In this document: piece after piece, positions 9,992 through 56,365 of the stretch
How the letters are laid out: each line of letters opens with the position of its first letter
Numbering within the stretch: position 1 is the stretch's first letter
NCBI GenBank assembly: GCA_036565605.1
Contig: DATCXV010000009.1
Coordinates: forward strand, 4,977-68,976
DNA length: 64,000 bases
Reading direction: 5' to 3'
Origin: Minisyncoccota bacterium
GTDB taxonomy: Bacteria; Patescibacteriota; Minisyncoccia; Phycocordibacterales; UBA6065
Program-made: the position numbers and the translations under genes
The notes under the pieces: generated by a model
What the model was told of the DNA's origin: nothing
What the model saw: the letters and a program-made list of their open reading frames with translations, nothing else
The model's database searches: none

Positions 9992-11388
<1,397 letters not shown>

Positions 11389-11398
<10 letters not shown>

Positions 11399-19094: not shown

Positions 19095-20387
19095 TTAGAG
19101 AGCCGGCAGATATGCACTGGGGTCGAGGTATGCCGTTGGTGGTGCGGCGACCGTCTTGATGCCAGCACAGTTCGTCGAGCCAAGCGAAGACGAATCAACT
19201 ACACGCACACCTGCGGTCGCATAAACGCCGAAATGGAGATGTGGACCGGTTGCGTATCCTGTCTGACCCGAATAGCCGATGGTATCGCCGGTCACGACCG
19301 TGTCTCCGGGCGAAACAGACACCACGGACAAGTGGCCGTAGATCGTGGAAAGACCGTTAGGATGCTTGATCAGGACAAATTTTCCGTACTGGCAGCCGCT
19401 CTTGGACCTTACCGCTTCGGTATCGACGACGGTGCCCGAGAGCGCAGCTTTAACCGGTGTGCCGATCGATGCGGCTAAGTCGATGCCGCCGTGGGTACCG
19501 GACGTGTACAAACGTTTCGCGGCGACAGTCTTGCCGAAATATTGGGTGACGCGGATAACGGAAAGAGGCCACTCCAAAATGCTGTGTCGTGCGTTTGGAA
19601 TAGCATTGGGATCAAGCGTGATCTTCAATTGGCTTTCGTATGCAAACAATTCTTTTTCGTACTGCTCGCGCTGGGCAACTTTGTCGTCCAGGATGGCTTT
19701 GTAGTTCGCTTCCCTATTCTTTGTTTCCGTCAAAAGTTTGTCCTTTTCAGTTTTAGTTGAGGCAACAACTTTTTGTTGGTCTGCAAGGCTCTTGCGATAA
19801 GCTTCAAGTTTGGTTTTCTCCCCTGTCGCCTGGTCGCGGCGCGCGCCCAAAAGCATGCGCAGGTCACGCAATTCTTCAAGATCTACTTTGACGCGGCCTT
19901 GGACCGAGCGAAGGGAGTTCACATAATCGAGCGCGCTGGAAATACCTTCATCCGACAGTAGGGTTTCTGCGAATGATTGCGATTCGGCTGCGCTAACATT
20001 GCGCATGGACTCGGCGATGGCGGCCTCGCGCACAGAAATTTTTGCTTCCGCGTCATCGATATCATCTTCAAGCTGTCCCAAGGTGAGCGATGTTTTGTCG
20101 ATCTGGGTTGCCGTCAAAGAAAGGTTCGCCTGCAATTTTTTTTGCGTCGTTTCAAGCTGTGACAAGGCAGACTTGAGCGACTGGGCCTGTGCCGACGTCG
20201 AGTTAAGAAGCGTTGAGTACTGATCGATCTGCCTTTGCAGATCGTCGATCTTGCGGTTGTTTTCTTCGATCTTGGCGCGGATCGCTTCTGGGGACTCAGC
20301 GGCGAAAGCAGAGTGAGTCAAAAAAACTGCCGCAAGGGCGGCAAACACAGACAAAATCCCAAAGATGATGTTACTTGATTTCGTCAT
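19095..20387 (-). CDS. M23 family metallopeptidase with N-terminal coiled-coil (EnvC-like)
   Basis: Signal peptide, long Q/E/K-rich coiled coil, and a C-terminal HGGIDLAAS...GYSGQTGYATGPHLHFGVY M23/LytM domain. Confidence 0.85.
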   Translation of the reverse strand: MTKSSNIIFGILSVFAALAAVFLTHSAFAAESPEAIRAKIEENNRKIDDLQRQIDQYSTLLNSTSAQAQSLKSALSQLETTQKKLQANLSLTATQIDKTSLTLGQLEDDIDDAEAKISVREAAIAESMRNVSAAESQSFAETLLSDEGISSALDYVNSLRSVQGRVKVDLEELRDLRMLLGARRDQATGEKTKLEAYRKSLADQQKVVASTKTEKDKLLTETKNREANYKAILDDKVAQREQYEKELFAYESQLKITLDPNAIPNARHSILEWPLSVIRVTQYFGKTVAAKRLYTSGTHGGIDLAASIGTPVKAALSGTVVDTEAVRSKSGCQYGKFVLIKHPNGLSTIYGHLSVVSVSPGDTVVTGDTIGYSGQTGYATGPHLHFGVYATAGVRVVDSSSLGSTNCAGIKTVAAPPTAYLDPSAYLPAL

Positions 20388-21786
20388 GCGCGCATTTATC
20401 CAGGGCCGTTTCGATACGTTTGATCGTTGTTTCTTTGCCTAAAATCGCAGCCAAGGTGAACGGATTAGGCGATCGATCTTTACCCGACAGAGCATAGCGT
20501 AAAGGCCACAAAACGGCTCCCCTGCCCTCTTTTTCTGCATAAGGCCAAATGACCGCCTTCACGCTTGCCTCATCCCAGGTGGCCGATTTGAAGCTCTGAA
20601 GCATATGCCTGACGTTGGCTAGATGCTTCTGTGCACCGGACAGGTCTGTTTCGTCTTTCCACTTAAGTGACAAAGCATCGTATTGCGGATCCGCGAAATA
20701 ATAATCGAGGTCGCGCTCTTCGATCATGGTGTCGATGTCGTTCAAGGTATCGATGCGCTCTAAGACAACGGGTGCGATGTTTGTAAGCAGCATGTGGTCT
20801 ATCTTCCATCCCAAATCCCGTGCCCGAGCAGACCGCAGAATGCGCTCTTCAAGTATGGTTGCAAATTTGTCTTTCGAGAGACGCTTCAGATGTTCTTTGT
20901 TTATCCAGCGCAATTTTTTCTCGTCAAAGACTGCGCCGCCCTTTTGAACCTTGGAAAGATCGAAGGCTTTGACCAACCCTTGGCGATCGAAAATTTCCTG
21001 GTCAGTGCCCGGGTTCCATCCGATGAGTGCCATGTAATTCAAAAGTGCTGACGGAAGAAATCCTTGGTCACGATAAAACGTCATCGGCTGGGCGCCGTGG
21101 CGTTTGGAAAGCTTTGATCGATCCAGGGCAAGTACCAAGGGCAGATGTGCATAGACAGGTGTCGGTGCGCCTAATGCTTCTTGGATGAGTATTTGTCTCG
21201 GTGTATTTGAAATGTGGTCTTCGCCTCGGATAACGTGCGTTACGCCCATAAGGAAGTCATCGAGCACGACCACAAAGTGGAAGATCGGTTCGGTCGGACT
21301 TTTGGCGATAACGAAGTCTCCCAGTTCAGTGGTGTCGAACTCTACGTCACCACGGATCAAATCATGGAAACGGACGCGCTTGTTGGGGTTGCGGAAACGA
21401 ACCACTTCGGCTCGCTGCCCTTCTTCGGTTACTTCTTCTTTCGAGATGTATGCCTTGTCTGCGGCGATCAGCTTATGGATCCATTCTTCATACAGATCAG
21501 TGCGTTCAGACTGGCGGTAAAACTCGTCGTGTGGTAATTCGAGCCACTTCAGACTTTCAACGATGTTGTTCTCGAATTCCTTTTTCGAGCGCGCTTTATC
21601 TGTGTCTTCGATGCGCAGGATGAAGGTGCCTTTGTGCTGTTTGGCGTACAGATATGAAAAGACTGCCGTACGATAGCTGCCGGCGTGCAAAAGACCGGTC
21701 GGAGACGGTGCAAATCGCGTCACAACCTTCGGCTTGCGGGAAAACAGGCCCTTGATTCGGCGCAGCATAATGCGGCCATTATACAC
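20371..21786 (-). CDS. gltX: glutamyl-tRNA synthetase
   Basis: RFAPSPTGLLHAGSYRTA (HIGH-class), ILRIEDTD, KLSKRHG (KMSKS). Confidence 0.9.
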   Translation of the reverse strand: MYNGRIMLRRIKGLFSRKPKVVTRFAPSPTGLLHAGSYRTAVFSYLYAKQHKGTFILRIEDTDKARSKKEFENNIVESLKWLELPHDEFYRQSERTDLYEEWIHKLIAADKAYISKEEVTEEGQRAEVVRFRNPNKRVRFHDLIRGDVEFDTTELGDFVIAKSPTEPIFHFVVVLDDFLMGVTHVIRGEDHISNTPRQILIQEALGAPTPVYAHLPLVLALDRSKLSKRHGAQPMTFYRDQGFLPSALLNYMALIGWNPGTDQEIFDRQGLVKAFDLSKVQKGGAVFDEKKLRWINKEHLKRLSKDKFATILEERILRSARARDLGWKIDHMLLTNIAPVVLERIDTLNDIDTMIEERDLDYYFADPQYDALSLKWKDETDLSGAQKHLANVRHMLQSFKSATWDEASVKAVIWPYAEKEGRGAVLWPLRYALSGKDRSPNPFTLAAILGKETTIKRIETALDKCAHDEIK

Positions 21787-27265: not shown

Positions 27266-28660
27266 TTAAGCCTTCTTTTTGACAGTAATTCCCAACTCCA
27301 TGAGCTGACTGTTCGATACCTCCGATGGCGACTGCATCATAAGGTCCCTTCCCTCGCCCGTTTTGGCGAAGGCGATCACCTCGCGGATGTTTGGTTCGTT
27401 CTGGAGGATTGCCATTAAACGGTCCATGCCCCAGGCGATGCCGCCGTGCGGAGGCGCGCCATAGCTGAAAGCTTCCAACATGTGACCGAAACCGGACTGA
27501 ATTTTCGCTTCGTCATAATTCATGACTTCAAGCACTTTGCGCAAGGCTTCCGGCTTGTGATTGCGGATCGAGCCGCCGCCGATCTCGAAGCCGTTCAGCG
27601 CTACGTCGTATTGGGTGGTCAGGATCTGCTCGATATTTTCCTTCTTCATGAGCATGTCCATGTGCTCTGGCTTCGGGGCCGAGAACGGGTTGTGGGTGAA
27701 AGTCCAGCCGCCCTGGTCGTTTTTCTCGAAGAACGGAAAGTCCACGACCCAGCAGAATGCAAGCAGATCAGGGTCATTTTTATCCGTGCGCAAATCCGGC
27801 TTGTCGGAATTGTATTTTTCCATCGCTTCTTTATATGAAAGGCGCGGGAATGGAATTTCTTGGATCTTTTTATGTGGGGCGACGGTCTTTACCAGATCGA
27901 TGAGTAATCGTTCGTTCAATGCCATGACATCTTCGCGAGTGACGAAGCTCATCTCCATATCGAGCTGTGTGAATTCCGGCTGGCGGTCACCACGGGTGTC
28001 TTCATCACGCATGCAGCGCGCAATTTGAAAGTAGCGTTCAAAGCCGGACGTCATCAACAGCTGCTTATACTGCTGGGGCGACTGCGGCAGTGCATAGAAT
28101 TTGCCGTTTTCGAGGCGCGACGGTACCAGAAAGCCGCGGGCGCCATCATGAGTGAATTTGGTAAGCATCGGTGTTTCGATCTCGGCAAAGCCTTCTTTGG
28201 TAAGCCAGTTACGCACGAACATGTTGACCGAGTGGCGGGTACGGATATTCTTTTGAAGGCGCGGCCGGCGCAAGTCCAAATATCGGTATGTAAGGCGCGG
28301 CTCTTCACCGATCTCGCGGCCATCCGAACGAACGTCGATGGGCGTGGTCTGGGCTTCGTTCAGGACTTTGATGTCAAGAATTTCAAGCTCGATCGAGCCG
28401 TTCTGTTTATCTTTTTGAATGTTCTTTTCCGGGCGCGGGTTTACCTTGCCGGTGATTTCCACTACCCATTCCGTGCGCAGAGTCTGGGCGATCGCCATCG
28501 ACTCTGCCTTCGGCAAAACAACACCTTGGACGTAGCCCGTCATATCACGGAAGTCCAAAAAGATCAGTTTGCCTTGGTCGCGGCGGACGTCAACCCAACC
28601 TTTGATGATGACAGTCTCGCCTTTCTTTGATTCGAGGTCTTTGATGAGTGTTCGTTCCAT
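27266..28660 (-). CDS. aspS: aspartyl-tRNA synthetase, short form without the bacterial insertion domain
   Basis: OB-fold anticodon-binding N-terminus and class II motifs (FRDEDTRGDRQPEFTQLDMEMSF; GGGSIRNHKPE). The 464-aa length implies the GAD insertion domain is absent. Confidence 0.9.
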   Translation of the reverse strand: MERTLIKDLESKKGETVIIKGWVDVRRDQGKLIFLDFRDMTGYVQGVVLPKAESMAIAQTLRTEWVVEITGKVNPRPEKNIQKDKQNGSIELEILDIKVLNEAQTTPIDVRSDGREIGEEPRLTYRYLDLRRPRLQKNIRTRHSVNMFVRNWLTKEGFAEIETPMLTKFTHDGARGFLVPSRLENGKFYALPQSPQQYKQLLMTSGFERYFQIARCMRDEDTRGDRQPEFTQLDMEMSFVTREDVMALNERLLIDLVKTVAPHKKIQEIPFPRLSYKEAMEKYNSDKPDLRTDKNDPDLLAFCWVVDFPFFEKNDQGGWTFTHNPFSAPKPEHMDMLMKKENIEQILTTQYDVALNGFEIGGGSIRNHKPEALRKVLEVMNYDEAKIQSGFGHMLEAFSYGAPPHGGIAWGMDRLMAILQNEPNIREVIAFAKTGEGRDLMMQSPSEVSNSQLMELGITVKKKA

Positions 28661-28689
28661 TGTAATTCGTTAAGAGACGGGGTGTATAT

Positions 28690-28912
28690 AAAAAAGCGCC
28701 CCTCCGAAAACAAGCTTTCGCTTGCTCTCGCAGGGGCGCCCTCAAAATAAAGAGAGTCGCGGTGCCACCCTGTCTTGTAACTTGTTTATACCGCATCGGG
28801 CGGCATCCGGGGGATTCTACGGCCTTTGCAGGCTTTCCTTCCCCGTCCTCGCCGGTGTCTGCCGGGTCGTCAGATGAAAATACTGTAGCGCGATTGTCAG
28901 TCGTTGTAAATA
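28690..28912 (-). promoter_or_regulatory. T-box riboswitch leader upstream of aspS
   Basis: Minus-strand AGGGTGGCACCGCG (plus 28758-28771) matches the T-box consensus AGGGTGGNACCGCG. It is followed on the minus strand by a GC-rich hairpin (ggcgcccctgcgag...cggaggggcgc) plus a U6 run (plus 28691-28696), then about 30 nt to the aspS ATG. Confidence 0.6.
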
Positions 28913-28913
28913 T

Positions 28914-30677
28914 CTATTCGTTTAGTGTCTGCAAATCCCTCAACCTTTTGAACTCACCTCCCTTTTCCACCAGTTCTTGATAGGTGCCCTGTTCGACGAT
29001 CTTACCCTCTTTGAAGACCAGAATTTTGTCGGCTTTGCGGACGGTCGAAAGGCGGTGCGCAATGATCAATGTCGTACGGTCCTTCATGATCTCGTCCAAA
29101 GATTGCACGATGTGCGCTTCAGATGCCGCATCCAATGCCGATGTTGGCTCGTCGAGAACCAGAATTTTCGGATCACGCAGAAAAGCACGGGCGATAGCAA
29201 TCCTTTGCTTTTGGCCCACTGACAATTTCATGCCGCGCTCGCCCACCTGTTGGTCCCACTTATTGGGAAGGCGTTCGATAAAATCGCATTTGGCTTTTTC
29301 TGCGGCCCAGCGGACTTTTTCGTCCGAAACGTCAGGTATGCCGTATCGAATGTTCTCCTGAATAGACGAATTGAAGAGTGTAATTTCCTGCGATACCACC
29401 GCCACGGCCCGGCGCAGACTTCCCAAATCTATTTCGCGCGTGTCGATGCCGTCGATCGAAACTGACCCTGAATCAGGCAGATAATATGCCGAAACCAGGT
29501 CGATAAGGCTCGACTTGCCGACGCCGGATTCTCCAACGAAAGCAACGACTTCACCTGCCTTAGCCTCGAATGAAACATCTTTCAAAATCGGAGTCTGGCC
29601 GTCATAGCTGAACGAGGTACGGTCAAAAACAATCTGTCCCATGGTCTGAGGCAATTCTTTGCCTCGGTACGGCTCTTCTTGCTCATGAGCAAGTTTGTCT
29701 GCATCCTCCATCGAGATAAGGCTGTTCTGGATAAAGCGCCACTGGCGAAAAAGTTGGCGCAGTGGTTCGAAGAAGCTTGAAACGTATGTCGCAAGCGCTG
29801 CGAAGGCACCAATGGTCATGAGGCCGTTGCGAATAGCAAGATACGCCATCCATAACGCGGCTATGCGGGCGGAATTTTCGATGATGCCTTGAAAAAGTGC
29901 CAGGTTCCTTTGGGCTGAAAGCATCTTTAATCGCGGACCAAGAGAATCTTCGAACCACGCTTTATGCATTTTCGCCGACTCGTTTGATTCGGACGCTGCC
30001 TCTTTGACCATGCGGACATTGAACAGGGCGTCACCGGCTACTCCCCTGGCTTTGGTGTAAGCGTTTTGAACTTTACGCTGAAGTCTGGCAAAGGGCTGGA
30101 CGAATAAAATTGAAATGACTGAGTACAAAAGTGCCGCTCCGACCAAAATCCATCCGATTGTCTGTTCCTTTTGAAAGACGTATACCGAAGCGATGGCAAT
30201 GAAGACGAATTGCGGCAAAAGCGAGAAGACATATTCGGACCAGAACTGCGGGATTGCTTGGACGCCGCGGTTAATCTTTTCGGTCACTTCGCCGTGCCGA
30301 TGGGTCTTGTGGAACGAGACGGGCAGACGCAGCATTTTTGAAAACAGGCCGTGCATGTATGAAAGCCGCATCGATTCGTCGACAAAATTTTGGATGCGAC
30401 CTTGGACATTTGAAAGGAAACGCGTGCCGAACAGCACTGCGGCAAGCACGATCATTGCTTTAAGTGTCTCTTTCTGCCCTGCTTCTGATGCTACGGCGTC
30501 AACGACGTGGCCGAAGGCAATTGGGAAAAGACCGTTTGCGATACCCATACCGACGACGATCAAAAGTAGGACGGCCAGCCTGCTTCGATATCCTTCGGTA
30601 GTCCGATACATCATTCCCAGACCATTGCGGAAGTCTTTGAACGTATATGCTCGTTCTGTCGGGGTGTCGTGCTTCAT
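28914..30677 (-). CDS. ABC transporter, fused permease/ATPase (exporter type)
   Basis: Six N-terminal TM helices, Walker A GESGVGKSSL, signature LSVGQKQR, Walker B ILVLDEPTSALD. Confidence 0.85.
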   Translation of the reverse strand: MKHDTPTERAYTFKDFRNGLGMMYRTTEGYRSRLAVLLLIVVGMGIANGLFPIAFGHVVDAVASEAGQKETLKAMIVLAAVLFGTRFLSNVQGRIQNFVDESMRLSYMHGLFSKMLRLPVSFHKTHRHGEVTEKINRGVQAIPQFWSEYVFSLLPQFVFIAIASVYVFQKEQTIGWILVGAALLYSVISILFVQPFARLQRKVQNAYTKARGVAGDALFNVRMVKEAASESNESAKMHKAWFEDSLGPRLKMLSAQRNLALFQGIIENSARIAALWMAYLAIRNGLMTIGAFAALATYVSSFFEPLRQLFRQWRFIQNSLISMEDADKLAHEQEEPYRGKELPQTMGQIVFDRTSFSYDGQTPILKDVSFEAKAGEVVAFVGESGVGKSSLIDLVSAYYLPDSGSVSIDGIDTREIDLGSLRRAVAVVSQEITLFNSSIQENIRYGIPDVSDEKVRWAAEKAKCDFIERLPNKWDQQVGERGMKLSVGQKQRIAIARAFLRDPKILVLDEPTSALDAASEAHIVQSLDEIMKDRTTLIIAHRLSTVRKADKILVFKEGKIVEQGTYQELVEKGGEFKRLRDLQTLNE

Positions 30678-32403: not shown

Positions 32404-33375
32404 TTAGAATTTCACTCCAACTGCGGTTTTTATCTTCTCCATCGTCTCCCCTGCTTTCTTTGCAGCCCTCTTGCCGCCCTTCTCGAGGATCTTGATCACC
32501 TTCCTTTTATTCTTCGCCAGCTTCTCGCGGCGTTCGCGCATCGGGCGGATGAATGCCTGAATGTCAGCAGCCAAAGCTTCCTTTAAATCCTTATATTTAC
32601 CTGCTTTTTCGGCATAAAGCCTGTCCAAATATTCTTTATCGCGGAACAATTCGTGGATAGCGCGGACGTTCGTGGGAACGCCAGAGCCAGAATCTGTGAC
32701 GATCGACATAACCGTTTTTTTGATCTCGTCGTCGGTGGAGAAAAGAGGAATGGTATTTCCGTACGATTTGGACATTTTGCGGCCATCAGTGCCAGGTACG
32801 GTGCCAACGCCTTCCATGATGAAATCCGCTGGAAGTTTAAACGTCTCTCCGAACGTGTTATTAAACTTTTGTGCAATGTCGCGAGTGTATTCGATGTGCT
32901 GCTTCTGATCCGCTCCAACCGGCACAATATCTGTTCCGTATAACAGAATGTCTGCGGCCATAAGGACCGGATAATTGAACTTGCCGACAGAAATTTCCTG
33001 ATTCTTTGCTTCAGCGTCTTTGAAGGCGTGTGCGCGCATAAGGTATGGCATCGACGTGATTGTGTCGAATATCCACGCGAGCTCAGTGTGAGCAGGGACA
33101 TCGGATTGCTTGAAGAGCGTGCATTTTTTCGGATCAAGGCCGATGGCAAGATAGTCCAAGGCCAGGTCAAGAATATTTTGACGCATCTGCTCTGCGTTCT
33201 GGACCGAGTTCAAAGCATGGTAATCCGCAAGCATGATGAAGCATTCGTATGTTCCGGTGTTCAAAAGATCCACAAATTGCTTCATGGCGCCGAAATAATT
33301 GCCGATATGCGGTCTGCCGGAAGGCTGGACGCCCGAAAGGAGTACTTTCTTTTCCATGGCTCTAGAGTACAACAA
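32404..33375 (-). CDS. trpS: tryptophanyl-tRNA synthetase
   Basis: LSGVQPSGRPHIGNYFGA (HIGH) and KMSKSYGN (KMSKS); 323 aa. Confidence 0.9.
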   Translation of the reverse strand: MLYSRAMEKKVLLSGVQPSGRPHIGNYFGAMKQFVDLLNTGTYECFIMLADYHALNSVQNAEQMRQNILDLALDYLAIGLDPKKCTLFKQSDVPAHTELAWIFDTITSMPYLMRAHAFKDAEAKNQEISVGKFNYPVLMAADILLYGTDIVPVGADQKQHIEYTRDIAQKFNNTFGETFKLPADFIMEGVGTVPGTDGRKMSKSYGNTIPLFSTDDEIKKTVMSIVTDSGSGVPTNVRAIHELFRDKEYLDRLYAEKAGKYKDLKEALAADIQAFIRPMRERREKLAKNKRKVIKILEKGGKRAAKKAGETMEKIKTAVGVKF

Positions 33376-35236: not shown

Positions 35237-36553
35237 CTATTTCAGCACAGCTGCAACGTCAGCAGGGGAAACTTTCTCTTGTGTTCCCTTCTCTAAATCT
35301 TTCACTATAACTTTTCCTTCCTTTGCTTCGTTGGTGCCGTACATGATTGCATAACGGATGCCTTTATCAGAAGCATAAGAGAGCTGTTTTTTGAGATCCG
35401 CTGTTTCGAAATACAGAACGGTGTTTATGTCCGCAGTGCGCAGATCCGATGCCATTTTCAGGTATTCGTTTTGCAGGGCTTCGTCAAAATTGACGATCAG
35501 AGCCTTGGAAACCGTAGTCTCGGTCTTTATCAGTTTCAGTTCTTCAAGGGCTGCCAAGAGCCGATCCAGGCCAATAGAGGCCCCTACAGCCGGCATCGGT
35601 TTGTTTGCGAACATGCCAACAAGTCCATCATAGCGACCGCCGGAAAGAACGGATCCGATGGACGGCAAAGCGGTAAGATTTGTCTCGAAAATCATGCCGG
35701 TGTAATAGTCGAGTCCACGCGCGATTGAAAAATCAATCACGAAGCGCGGCTTGAATGTAGCTTGAGACGCAAGCTGGTACGCTGACTCGATGATACCTAA
35801 AAGTTTTTCCAAAGGCGCCTTGGTACCTGGAAAGCTTTCTGCGGCGTTCATAAGATCCGTGCGTTGTTCGATGGGATCAAGTGCTACAGACGCGAAAGCG
35901 ATAATGGCCTGGGCTTTGTCGGCCACAATCCCTTTTTCTGAAAGCTCCTGCATGACGCCGTCCTTCCCTATCTTGTCGATCTTATCCACCGCGCGGATGG
36001 CAGAAAGCTGTTCGCTTTCCGAAAGACCCAGAGATCCATAGAACGCGGAAATGATCTCTCGCGAATTTACGCGCATGATGAAGTCGCTTACGCCAAGAGT
36101 GCACAGTGTGGATGCAGCTAATGCCAGTATTTCGGCGTCTGCAAGTGGATTTTCCGTACCGACAATATCAGCATCGCACTGATAGAATTCGCGAAAGCGA
36201 CCTTTCTGGGTATTTTCTGCGCGCCAGACTGGCGAGACCTGATAGCGCTTCCACGGCTTCTTGATATCGTTTTGATACTGTGCAACGACACGTGCCAAAG
36301 GAATGGTGAGATCATAGCGAAGAGCAACGTCACGGTCACCGTTATCACGGAAACGGTACATGAGCTTGTCCCCTTCGTCGCCGTATTTACCGACAAGTGT
36401 TTCTGCGTATTCCAAAGCTGGCGTTTCCAAGGGCTCGAATCCGAAGCGCTCGTACGACGCTTTAATGGCCGAAATCATCTTCTGTCGAACGATCTGTTCG
36501 GCAGGAAGAAAGTCGCGGAAACCTTTCAGAGTCTTTGGTTCGATCTGTGACAT
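35237..36553 (-). CDS. hisS: histidyl-tRNA synthetase
   Basis: Class II motifs (FRDNGDRDVALRYDLTIPLAR; GGRYDGL; GLDYYTG). Confidence 0.9.
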   Translation of the reverse strand: MSQIEPKTLKGFRDFLPAEQIVRQKMISAIKASYERFGFEPLETPALEYAETLVGKYGDEGDKLMYRFRDNGDRDVALRYDLTIPLARVVAQYQNDIKKPWKRYQVSPVWRAENTQKGRFREFYQCDADIVGTENPLADAEILALAASTLCTLGVSDFIMRVNSREIISAFYGSLGLSESEQLSAIRAVDKIDKIGKDGVMQELSEKGIVADKAQAIIAFASVALDPIEQRTDLMNAAESFPGTKAPLEKLLGIIESAYQLASQATFKPRFVIDFSIARGLDYYTGMIFETNLTALPSIGSVLSGGRYDGLVGMFANKPMPAVGASIGLDRLLAALEELKLIKTETTVSKALIVNFDEALQNEYLKMASDLRTADINTVLYFETADLKKQLSYASDKGIRYAIMYGTNEAKEGKVIVKDLEKGTQEKVSPADVAAVLK

Positions 36554-53766: not shown

Positions 53767-55125
53767 TTACGGAGTCTTGGTTATATCAATCGAAGAGAGT
53801 GATGTTGGGAACGAGCGACGCCAGAATGGTCTGATAGATATATCAGCCTTCTCGATCATTGGATAATTAGAAAGGATGGTAGAAACAGCTGCGCGAGACT
53901 GCCCCTTAAGTGCTGTTTTCAATGCTAGTTCATCATACGTCCATTCAAGTGTGGCAGGACCTTTAAGCGAGAACGAAATCGAGTCAGAAGAAGGATCAAA
54001 GCCAGACTTTGGTGTGAAGACCAGATCCGCAGGTTCCTGGATGATTGTCGCACTACCATCATTTTTGCCAGTCGCAGCAGCGATAGCTTGGCCAAAGGCG
54101 TGCGGCTCGAAAACTGCTGCTGAAATAGTACCTTCTTCCTTGATCAAAGCCGAACCACTATCAGCAGATTCGTCAGGCAGGTCTTTGAAGCTGATCACGT
54201 ACGCATTGTCATAAAAGACTGCGCCTGGAGCCATGGCCGCCTTTGCTTTTTCAAGAAGCGATGTCGTAAGTGCAGCTTCGTTTGCTTGTTTTGCCTTTGC
54301 ACGATCAGCATCAGCTACGACCTTCTGTGTGCCTACAAAGCCGCCAGCAAAAGGAGTTTTTGATCGAGCGTAAAAACCCTGGTAGCGAGGATCGCCTTTA
54401 AAACCTGGAATAGTTAAATCCTTCAAGCCAACATTGTATTTATCGCCTGGTTCATCGGCCATGACCACTGCTTCAATCGATCCTGGCTTTGATCCAGATT
54501 TGCCCGGCACGGTAACCGAGTCAGAAATGCGGTACACAAGTCCTTCTGGTGTCTCGAAACGAGTATTTTTAATAAGTCGCTGCGATGCCGAGCTGTAATT
54601 GTTATATATAACGATCGTCCCCGACGCGCGGGTTGAAACCTGTTTTTCGCCGTTCGCTTTGACCGTCTGGCCTGCTGTATCTTTGATAATTACCGGCAAG
54701 AAAGCCAGGCCAGTTGCAGCCTCCTTCTTTGCTGTAAAGTCATTTGCAACGGTAACATCAGCCGTCTTTACTGTTACAGCCATAGCTGCACCATGGAAAA
54801 CAGTTGATAGAAGCACCGCAGCGACGATGACCAACGTGACGATACCTGCGAAAACTCTTTTCGCGCTTGAACCGCGGCGTCGGGACCTCGGCTTTTTTTT
54901 ACTTACTTCTTCCTGAGCATGCTCCCACTCTCTTATTGCTTCAGAAGGCTCGGGCCTGCGTTCTACTTTTTTGCGGACAATTACCATGTCGCCATCTTGC
55001 TCGACGACTGGTTCGGTTCGAGGCGCTGGACGTTCAACCGCACGCGGTCGAATATCTTTAAGCGGCACGTTCCTGATAGAACGACGATCTGGTGGCACGA
55101 TGTCTTGGAAAGAATTTCGAGGCAT
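53767..55125 (-). CDS. bitopic membrane protein (basic cytoplasmic N-terminus, one TM, large extracytoplasmic domain), hypothetical
   Basis: 452 aa; RSRRRGSSAKR then TM FAGIVTLVIVAAVLLSTVF, then a long T/S/A/G-rich region with no motif. Confidence 0.5.
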   Translation of the reverse strand: MPRNSFQDIVPPDRRSIRNVPLKDIRPRAVERPAPRTEPVVEQDGDMVIVRKKVERRPEPSEAIREWEHAQEEVSKKKPRSRRRGSSAKRVFAGIVTLVIVAAVLLSTVFHGAAMAVTVKTADVTVANDFTAKKEAATGLAFLPVIIKDTAGQTVKANGEKQVSTRASGTIVIYNNYSSASQRLIKNTRFETPEGLVYRISDSVTVPGKSGSKPGSIEAVVMADEPGDKYNVGLKDLTIPGFKGDPRYQGFYARSKTPFAGGFVGTQKVVADADRAKAKQANEAALTTSLLEKAKAAMAPGAVFYDNAYVISFKDLPDESADSGSALIKEEGTISAAVFEPHAFGQAIAAATGKNDGSATIIQEPADLVFTPKSGFDPSSDSISFSLKGPATLEWTYDELALKTALKGQSRAAVSTILSNYPMIEKADISIRPFWRRSFPTSLSSIDITKTP

Positions 55126-55141
55126 AACTCTGTTATGTTTC

Positions 55142-56365
55142 CTATATCATATCATACGCTCGGGCAGCGAAAGCAGATGCGATAGCAATGAAGGCATCTT
55201 TTTCCGCGTGCTCGCTAAAAGAAACTGAATCTTTCAGGCGATCGGCGCTTACCAATGTCGGTGAAAATGATCCGGCCGAAAGCGTTCTCATAAAGAATGG
55301 AAGCAGGTCACCGTCGATAACGGCATAACTTTCTTTCGGAAGCGACACATGGTCAGAAAGCCGGGTCAGAGCATCAGAAAGCGATTTCATCCAGTTTTCC
55401 CCCGCCTCGTCTAAGACCGGCCGGACCTTTTCCTTGGTCGTATCGTCAAGTTTTCCTTCTTCATATAGACGAATCAAAGATGAGGCTTGCTCGGGTGATG
55501 TTGCAAAGGCTTTTGCAGCCGCAGAAACAATAGTATTGCGACCTGCCGGAAAGCTTGCGCTTTCAAGCAGAAGTCCGTCTTTGGTCACTGCGACGTCCGA
55601 AAGTTCTCCACCGATATCAAGATAGAGAAAATCCGGCGCAGTCTGAAACGTATCTCGAATAGTCGAGAATGAAGCCAATGCCAGCGTGTGCGCATTGGTT
55701 CCTTTCGGGTGAAATGCAGCAATTGTTATCTGGCGGACTTTTTCTAAAACCATATTCGGAACCAAGCTCATAAAGATCGAGATTTGAGCGGATTTTGCCT
55801 TTTTGCCGTACGGATCGGCAAGTTCGTAACCGTTCAGTGTGATCTGCACCACCTTACGTTCGATGATCGTAAGTTCCTTTGCGATCTCATTTGCTACTCC
55901 ACCAACGTCTTGCGCAATCTTTTCAATCAAAGCCTCTGTAAGCTCGAACGGTGTTTCTTCATCGATTGAAACAACACGCGTCTGAGTCACCGACCAGGGC
56001 GAAGAAAAGATATGCATCACTCGCTTCACCTTAAGACCACCAAATTCTGTGAACTTCAAATGTGATGCACCTTCGTGGATTATGCGCTCGTTCGCTCTTT
56101 CCAAAGCTGCAATCATCTGAGAAAGAAGGCGCTCTGCATCTTTGCTCGAGGTGGCCTTTTCAGACAGCAATTCGCGAACCGTAAAAATGACTTGAGGTGC
56201 AGCACCCTTTGTAAATCTAACCAAGCCCGCCCCAACCGATGCCGATCCGATGTGAAAGACAACACCGAGTTCGGTTTTCGAAGAGAAAAGAGACATGGGT
56301 AAAGTATAGCAAAGAAAATGGACCCGTCGCGCAGCGACGATAGGTTTCTCGAATTGACTAAACAA
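55142..56365 (-). CDS. actin-like ATPase (FtsA/PilM-like, ASKHA superfamily), hypothetical
   Basis: GVVFHIGSASVGAGLV (phosphate-1-like) and LYLDIGGELSDVAVTKDG (phosphate-2/adenosine-like). The likely start is the internal MSLFSSKTELG (about 56296), which would remove the overlap with alaS. Confidence 0.5.
   Translation of the reverse strand: MFSQFEKPIVAARRVHFLCYTLPMSLFSSKTELGVVFHIGSASVGAGLVRFTKGAAPQVIFTVRELLSEKATSSKDAERLLSQMIAALERANERIIHEGASHLKFTEFGGLKVKRVMHIFSSPWSVTQTRVVSIDEETPFELTEALIEKIAQDVGGVANEIAKELTIIERKVVQITLNGYELADPYGKKAKSAQISIFMSLVPNMVLEKVRQITIAAFHPKGTNAHTLALASFSTIRDTFQTAPDFLYLDIGGELSDVAVTKDGLLLESASFPAGRNTIVSAAAKAFATSPEQASSLIRLYEEGKLDDTTKEKVRPVLDEAGENWMKSLSDALTRLSDHVSLPKESYAVIDGDLLPFFMRTLSAGSFSPTLVSADRLKDSVSFSEHAEKDAFIAIASAFAARAYDMI

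Follow-up and report, generated by a model that had tools for sequence, protein, structure and literature searches.

T-box elements are marked by a 14-nt consensus, AGGGUGGNACCGCG, with a 7-nt UGGNACC bulge (PMC11297988), and surveys place them in Firmicutes, Actinobacteria, Chloroflexi, Deinococcus-Thermus and a few Proteobacteria. A platform for the tRNA elbow is generally required by those that act on transcription, and the role of primary steric sensor falls to a G.U wobble at the foot of helix A2 (PMC7583486); the discriminator is described in T-box reviews as needing Stem III together with the purines that flank it. The ultrashort T-boxes are described as having a greatly shortened helical element whose terminal loop holds the specifier, as lacking an elbow platform and as relying on Stem II together with Stem IIA/B (10.1101/2023.02.28.530422; PMC7583486). 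Published accounts also describe this class as translational and restricted to ileS, tRNA(Ile) and Actinobacteria (10.1101/2023.02.28.530422; PMC12990946), and its M. tuberculosis example as retaining Stem III (PMC11297988). Here we describe an element that belongs to the T-box family in the broad sense, but departs in several features from the canonical family as well as from the ultrashort class. It lies ahead of aspS, encoding aspartyl-tRNA synthetase (AspRS), in a 64,000-nt stretch of DNA from a Minisyncoccota bacterium (Patescibacteriota; assembly GCA_036565605.1, contig DATCXV010000009.1, positions 4,977 to 68,976), hereafter the window. On the sequence and comparative evidence given below, this is very probably a T-box that attenuates transcription of aspS in response to tRNA(Asp) and whose decoding domain is reduced.

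The aspS leader, 253 nt of intergenic sequence read on the minus strand, lies between an ABC-transporter gene, whose stop codon is at 28914, and the ATG of aspS (28660). The features of the locus are as follows, in window coordinates.

28914-30677: ABC-transporter gene, the upstream neighbour of the aspS leader
28882..28910, minus strand: promoter-like site from a consensus scan (9/12 matches), with -35 TTTACA at 28910-28905, a 17-nt spacer and -10 TACAGT at 28887-28882
28846..28874, minus strand: Stem I, a kink-turn (K-turn) plus a short hairpin, from the minimum free energy (MFE) fold and covariation
28857..28859, minus strand: specifier triplet GAC (Asp codon) in the terminal loop, with the conserved purine A28856 next to it
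28810..28844, minus strand: Stem II, lower helix GGGGA (28844-40) with UCCCC (28814-10)
28788..28809, minus strand: Stem IIA/B pseudoknot, IIA AUGCCGC (28806-00) with GCGGUAU (28794-88), loop CCGAU
28772..28787, minus strand: A-rich linker AAACAAGUUACAAGAC, 16 nt, where other T-boxes have Stem III
28758..28771, minus strand: T-box sequence AGGGUGGCACCGCG (DNA AGGGTGGCACCGCG), from an exact consensus match and an Rfam local alignment
28732..28771, minus strand: antiterminator, A1 AGGG (28771-68) with CCCU (28735-32), a 7-nt bulge, and A2 GCG (28760-58) with CGC (28738-36)
28690..28740, minus strand: intrinsic terminator, hairpin 28740-28696 and U6 28695-28690
27266..28660, minus strand: aspS, the regulated gene, encoding a bacterial-type AspRS of 464 aa without the GAD insertion domain

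Relatives of the locus were collected in two scans, and individual loci are cited by L numbers. The AspRS protein was scanned against 185,579 species genomes, which gave the 80 closest loci, chosen by protein only. All of these came from Patescibacteria/Parcubacteria-type metagenome-assembled genomes and encode an AspRS of the same short length, 52-73% identical to that of the window, which bears out the earlier suggestion of a genome like those of the candidate phyla radiation. The T-box motif was present in 11 of the 80 loci (L004, L005, L007, L012, L016, L019, L021, L043, L064, L068 and L079), positioned 5' of aspS itself or of a short operon whose last gene is aspS, and no other T-box motif was found elsewhere in the 576 kb of these 80 loci. 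A metagenome scan with the exact T-box 17-mer ACAGGGTGGCACCGCGA gave 120 loci, which were a mixture of ordinary T-boxes, chance matches in coding sequence and more copies of the reduced type. These searches provided 30 further copies of the reduced T-box, or 31 with the divergent L007 copy. An AspRS gene lies downstream in 31/31 copies tested, mostly of the bacterial-type short form.

Two covariance models were used. The first, R1, was seeded with the window sequence alone and a structure assigned by eye, and found relatives at 16-67 bits, its matches to homologous leaders lying at 37-80 bits; the second, R2, was rebuilt from 21 copies. R2 scored copies with the full architecture at 85-131 bits, smaller forms at 22-60 bits and ordinary T-boxes below 37 bits, while the window copy, though among the source sequences of R2, scored 113 bits. 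The window copy has kept all the positions that are conserved in the family. With plain MAFFT, the leader alignments were off by one column in Stem II and scrambled near insertions, and were replaced by a realignment based on R1.

The expression platform of the element has the form that the original prediction had described. The minus-strand T-box sequence matches the consensus exactly at 28758-28771, and an exact match to the 14-mer AGGGTGGCACCGCG arose in 0/100 shuffles of the window that preserved dinucleotides. Its bulge, UGGCACC at 28767-61, begins with UGGC, which would pair with a tRNA 3' end GCCA, that is, with G73 as the discriminator base. Bacterial tRNA(Asp) in general carries a G73 discriminator. 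When the antiterminator segment was folded alone, the MFE structure was exactly the A1/bulge/A2 shape (-13.7 kcal/mol), and helices A1 and A2 are 100% paired, with some compensatory changes, in a 31-row model-based alignment. Downstream lies a GC-rich hairpin of -39.9 kcal/mol (28740-28696) followed by U6. This tract stops 29 nt short of the ATG of aspS, in agreement with the predicted terminator about 30 nt ahead of the gene. The 3' strand of the antiterminator (CGC and CCCU, 28738-28732) doubles as the 5' arm of the terminator, and this shared strand makes the two structures, at -13.7 and -39.9 kcal/mol, mutually exclusive and gives them the canonical T-box switch logic that had been proposed. 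The T-box sequence itself had also been said to overlap the terminator; the 14-mer in fact sits 17 nt upstream of the 5' arm, and it is its pairing partner (28738-28732) that forms part of the arm. A terminator scanner reported no terminator here, since the stem has a G/G mismatch and exceeds the gapless rule of that program, but the hairpin is clear in the fold.

A hairpin that reuses the 3' strand of the antiterminator, followed by a run of at least 4 U (U6 in the window), is present in 31/31 copies, and in none of the 31 does this alternative hairpin cover a Shine-Dalgarno-like or ribosome-binding site. This points to transcription antitermination as the mode of control.

The decoding half departs from what was expected. 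A canonical Stem I with its specifier loop is not present upstream of the T-box sequence; specifically, the window leader is without the long Stem I that has its specifier loop inside the helix and a distal double-T-loop platform for the elbow. Instead, there is a K-turn and a 4-bp hairpin. The C-stem of the K-turn pairs UCU (28874-72) with GGA (28848-46), and is followed by a 3-nt bulge, GAC (28871-69), and tandem G.A pairs between GA at 28868-67 and GA at 28850-49. The hairpin pairs CCGG (28865-62) with CCGG (28855-52) and closes a 6-nt terminal loop, CAGACA (28861-56), in which we found the expected Asp specifier as GAC, although in a tiny terminal loop. All four pairs of the hairpin covary in the 31-row alignment, with the variants CCGG/CCGG, CCAG/CUGG, GCCG/CGGC, GCUG/CAGC and UCGA/UCGA. 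The C-stem of the K-turn, which lay outside the modelled region and was hence not fitted to the model, is paired in 71/84 cells as compared to 55 +/- 2.8 in shuffles (0/2000 reach this value), and occurs as UCC/GGA, ACC/GGU, AGC/GCU, AAC/GUU, AUC/GAU and GCC/GGC. Among 24 aligned full-architecture copies the specifier position reads GAC in 18 and AAC in 6, and the base after it is A wherever it could be aligned.

Stem II carries an internal loop of the S-turn type between its lower helix and an upper helix GCCU/AGGC with a GCAA cap (28833-22). The S-turn strands are AGGAAA on the 5' side (28839-34) and CGUAGAA on the 3' side (28821-15), and the bases A-R-G-A-A (5') and U-A-G-A (3') are invariant in 24/24 copies; 4/5 pairs of the lower helix covary. 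All seven pairs of helix IIA covary as well. Helix IIB is formed by CGG (28809-07) and CCG in the IIA loop (28799-97), an F-box-like CCGNN, and changes in a compensatory manner to CGU/ACG (L087, L100, L108, L115, L147) and to CAG/CUG (L021, L170). The MFE structure of the decoding half alone gave the specifier hairpin, Stem II and the IIA hairpin region. The linker that follows is 11-17 nt long in 22/24 copies, has the conserved pattern ..RAG....AAAAC and shows no pairing potential. The hairpin at 28806-28788 was considered as a candidate Stem III and rejected, because 16 nt separate it from A1 and there is covariation between its loop and the upstream CGG, as in Stem IIA/B.

Taken over the 31-row alignment, 91.8% of cells are in standard pairs and 21/26 pairs vary on both sides. 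The covariation score was 0.338, compared to 0.123 +/- 0.010 in shuffles (0/500 reach it), and fell to 0.088 or below when the partners were slid by 1-3 columns. RNAalifold applied to an ordinary MAFFT alignment independently recovered Stem I, the lower helix of Stem II and the antiterminator. Covariation among the sequences compared supports every proposed helix, including the pseudoknot and the K-turn stem. Together with the conserved, non-canonical decoding domain and the agreement between specifier and gene, these compensatory changes support the proposal that a T-box controls this aspS.

A promoter-like site fits this architecture. In the window leader, ~13 nt separate its -10 box from the first helix of Stem I, and the relatives inspected have a -10-like box of the TATAAT type ~12-20 nt 5' of Stem I. 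Transcription is predicted to start at ~28875, directly ahead of the first paired base of the RNA element. A second promoter-like match on the minus strand at 28659-28688 (TATACA, 18 nt, TACAAT) was put down to chance, as its -10 box and the start codon of aspS overlap.

From these features we infer tRNA binding, charge sensing, the direction of regulation and the transcription start, and propose the following mechanism. Transcription would begin at ~28875, and the nascent RNA would form the K-turn and the 4-bp hairpin, showing GAC in its 6-nt loop, with Stem II next. The anticodon GUC of tRNA(Asp) would pair with GAC, and the purines of the S-turn, positioned by the IIA/B pseudoknot, may dock along the codon-anticodon helix. 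If the tRNA were uncharged, its 3' GCCA would pair with UGGC in the bulge and stabilise the weak antiterminator, which would block the far stronger terminator and allow polymerase to read into aspS. If the tRNA were charged, the antiterminator would remain unstabilised, the terminator would form, and transcription would stop at U6.

Several points weigh against this interpretation. The element has no tRNA-elbow platform and no Stem III, and the base of its helix A2 lacks the G.U wobble that has been called the primary steric sensor. The basal pair is G-C in the window (G28760-C28736), and G-C in 28, A-U in 2 and G.U in 1 of the 31 copies. The RF00230 scan recommended with the original prediction gave no match in the window at the gathering score. 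No genes for tRNA(Asp) or tRNA(Asn) were found in the window, in the 200 loci or beside the best relatives. In addition, the alignment used for counting pairs was fitted to the model, and the metagenome copies were selected by an exact 17-mer, so that invariance within that stretch is partly by construction.

The element was compared with described T-boxes. With the canonical T-box (RF00230; Bacillus tyrS type) it has in common the 14-nt sequence, the switch between antiterminator and terminator, a K-turn at the foot of Stem I, an S-turn in Stem II, the IIA/B pseudoknot, an aminoacyl-tRNA synthetase (aaRS) target and agreement between the specifier and the amino acid of the gene. It differs in having no long Stem I, internal specifier loop, distal T-loop platform or Stem III, and in its A2 basal pair, which is G.U in the canonical T-box and G-C here. 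One could regard it as an ordinary canonical T-box whose RF00230 score is low due to genome divergence, as the expression platform is canonical (14-mer, 7-nt bulge, strand shared with the terminator) and the K-turn, S-turn and pseudoknot are all standard T-box modules. We consider this very unlikely. The ~13 nt after the -10 box leave no space for a canonical Stem I of ~90 nt, the specifier lies in a terminal and not an internal loop, and there is neither a distal platform nor a Stem III. RF00230 at its gathering score detected a control canonical T-box (L090, 112 bits) but matched 0/10 tested loci of the reduced type, and a permissive Rfam scan of 28600-28960 gave, besides hits at chance level, only a local alignment of the antiterminator to the T-box model (model positions 187-216; 11 bits versus 93, E = 3.5).

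The closest known relative, judged from secondary descriptions, is the ultrashort ileS T-box of Mycobacterium smegmatis, M. tuberculosis and Nocardia farcinica (Sherwood et al. 2015). By those descriptions, both have a short Stem I with the specifier in its terminal loop, no elbow platform, an S-turn within Stem II, a IIA/B pseudoknot and a bulge that pairs with NCCA. Their differences, on the same secondary accounts, lie in the output (Shine-Dalgarno sequestration in the ultrashort class, an intrinsic terminator here), in the gene, specificity and host (ileS and tRNA(Ile) in Actinobacteria as opposed to aspS with GAC or AAC in Patescibacteria) and in Stem III, which the ultrashort class keeps and which is replaced here by the 16-nt linker. 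The likeness of the terminal-loop specifier, Stem II and IIA/B to that class, as described in 10.1101/2023.02.28.530422, could suggest a translational T-box that sequesters the ribosome-binding site. This is highly improbable, since the U run follows the alternative hairpin in all 31 copies, and in the window ends 29 nt short of the ATG with no Shine-Dalgarno-like sequence covered.

The glyQS T-box of Bacillus and Geobacillus is likewise naturally reduced and transcriptional. Four relatives (L004, L104, L168, L012) resemble it in being without Stem II and IIA/B, but glyQS retains a long Stem I with an elbow platform and Stem III, whereas the window copy has Stem II and IIA/B instead (PMC7583486).

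The hairpin and U6 might also be the terminator of the upstream ABC-transporter gene, with the 14-mer a chance match or a decayed relic, and there is indeed no other terminator between that gene and the aspS promoter-like site. We regard this as extremely unlikely, because the exact 14-mer is not expected by chance, the conserved family positions are intact in the window copy, the relatives keep the element before aspS despite differing upstream DNA, and some of them (for example L019 and L068) have a separate upstream terminator.

The specifier variants bear on what the element senses. AAC occupies the specifier position, with aspS still downstream, in seven relatives (L016:195-301, L068:2778-2914, L087:8223-8403, L100:5351-5507, L115:1499-1638, L176:227-371 and L007:2520-2760), six of them read from the alignment and L007 by eye. 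Asn-specific T-boxes of Clostridium acetobutylicum, with a canonical long Stem I, reportedly control aspS or transamidation genes, a finding ascribed to Saad and colleagues in 2012. If this is so, those T-boxes, like the seven relatives, place aspS under a tRNA(Asn)-type specifier, unlike the window copy with its GAC. AAC before aspS is understandable if tRNA(Asn) is charged by AspRS as well, for transamidation, and such charging is established in organisms without AsnRS (PMC2494555). In the AAC lineages, the sequences imply that aspS would respond to the charging of tRNA(Asn), as for a non-discriminating AspRS feeding transamidation. Two of them, L016 (276-289) and L007 (2667-2680), combine AAC with a UGGU bulge, all other copies having UGGC; this predicts a tRNA(Asn) with discriminator A73, which would be unusual. 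In the window, neither gatCAB nor asnS was found among the 33 open reading frames (ORFs) scanned. That the window element senses something other than tRNA(Asp) charging, such as tRNA(Asn), or works with a K-turn-binding protein, would accord with the seven AAC relatives and with the binding of K-turns by L7Ae-family proteins in Bacillus (PMC7583486), but is extremely improbable since its own specifier is GAC, and a dependence on protein would supplement a T-box mechanism, not replace it.

The regulated enzyme had been described as an insertion-less, archaeal-like AspRS. The first part of this description holds, as Pfam domains comprise only the OB fold and tRNA-synt_2, with GAD absent; the second does not, as the protein scores 615 bits, in two stretches, against the bacterial-type model NF001750 and 234 bits against the archaeal-type NF003483. 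An archaeal/non-discriminating-type AspRS is found in two relatives, L147 (4859-6142) and L172 (4609-5970), which match NF003483 at ~510 bits and are 26-35% identical to the window protein. Their leaders have the same reduced T-box with a GAC specifier. The presence of this leader before two different types of AspRS indicates that the RNA goes with the function rather than with a single gene lineage. The leader either was transferred between two unrelated types of aspS or is older than their exchange.

We put at roughly even odds the broader proposition that these copies represent an undescribed class of transcription-terminating T-box without elbow platform or Stem III, specific for tRNA(Asp)/tRNA(Asn) and apparently confined to aspS in Patescibacteria. 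A full-text literature search, incomplete in its coverage, returned no paper linking T-boxes with Patescibacteria or Saccharibacteria, so that an earlier description is possible.

This conserved, covarying family breaks three expectations, namely that an elbow platform is needed, that a short Stem I occurs only in translational ileS T-boxes and that Stem III is needed, and yet it keeps the terminator switch. It therefore offers a natural test of which T-box parts co-transcriptional sensing needs, and gives engineers a compact scaffold. In addition, it brings T-boxes to the candidate phyla radiation, where next to nothing is known of how genes are regulated, and suggests that aspS has been singled out for tRNA-charging control in reduced genomes, with the AAC variants linking this control to the charging of tRNA(Asn) by AspRS. 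Annotation based on Rfam would miss the element, as the window copy and ten tested relatives fall below the gathering score.

Smaller forms of the element were found at L004:782-861, L104:858-935 and L168:1645-1742. These are 79-98 nt long and consist of the K-turn/specifier hairpin, a linker of ~25-30 nt and the antiterminator, with neither Stem II nor the pseudoknot. L012 (707-825) keeps a Stem III-like hairpin and is without Stem II and IIA/B, and L019 (2810-2913) and L105 (2617-2723) have an unrelated hairpin instead. All the smaller forms have terminators and precede an intact aspS, except that the L104 contig ends before the gene is visible. If functional, the ~80-nt forms (L004, L104, L168; Stem I to the end of the antiterminator) would be the smallest natural tRNA-sensing switches, and would contradict the idea that a T-box acting during transcription must have a long Stem I to capture tRNA fast enough.

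Two copies, L064 and L161, have insertions at the position of the linker. In L161 (1852-2143) the insertion is ~135 nt long and lies between the pseudoknot and the T-box sequence, and in L064 (1-199) there are extra hairpins, one of which, 5 nt before helix A1, resembles a retained Stem III. These insertions hint at the route by which Stem III was lost. The inner stem of the terminator is near-identical in most relatives (CUGCGAAUUUAUUA...UAAUGAAUUCGGAG, with a conserved G/G mismatch), for example in L005 (2933-2975), L108, L170, L172, L176 and L180. This conservation, which is more than a terminator needs, spans loci whose AspRS is only 60-70% identical to that of the window; the window terminator differs in a stretch of the inner stem (CUGCGAGAGCAAGC). 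In L079 (2243-4866) the T-box precedes a 170-aa ORF and then a 621-aa aspS product with an extra C-terminal extension. The 170-aa ORF has a weak match, under the family cut-off (E = 2.7e-11), to the type I asparaginase/GatD N-terminal domain, and an Asp-supplying enzyme may be co-regulated with aspS there.

The window has six aaRS genes in 64 kb, all on the minus strand, with a leader at aspS only. The other five are listed below; their upstream gaps are at most 55 nt, or the genes overlap, which confirms that none of them has room for a leader.

9992-11398, minus strand: cysS
20371-21786, minus strand: gltX
32404-33375, minus strand: trpS
35237-36553, minus strand: hisS
56358-58139, minus strand: alaS, a short form of 593 aa

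An Rfam scan of the whole window at gathering thresholds gave no match, not even to a tRNA. Directly 3' of alaS, two adjoining ORFs of 452 and 407 aa (53767-56365, minus strand) have no NCBIfam match at E <= 1e-6. A 278-aa ORF at 61183-62019 (minus strand) weakly resembles Cas4, with a match (E = 2.2e-8) under the family cut-off. The GC content of window positions 1-4000 is 0.416, as compared to 0.45-0.52 in the remainder.

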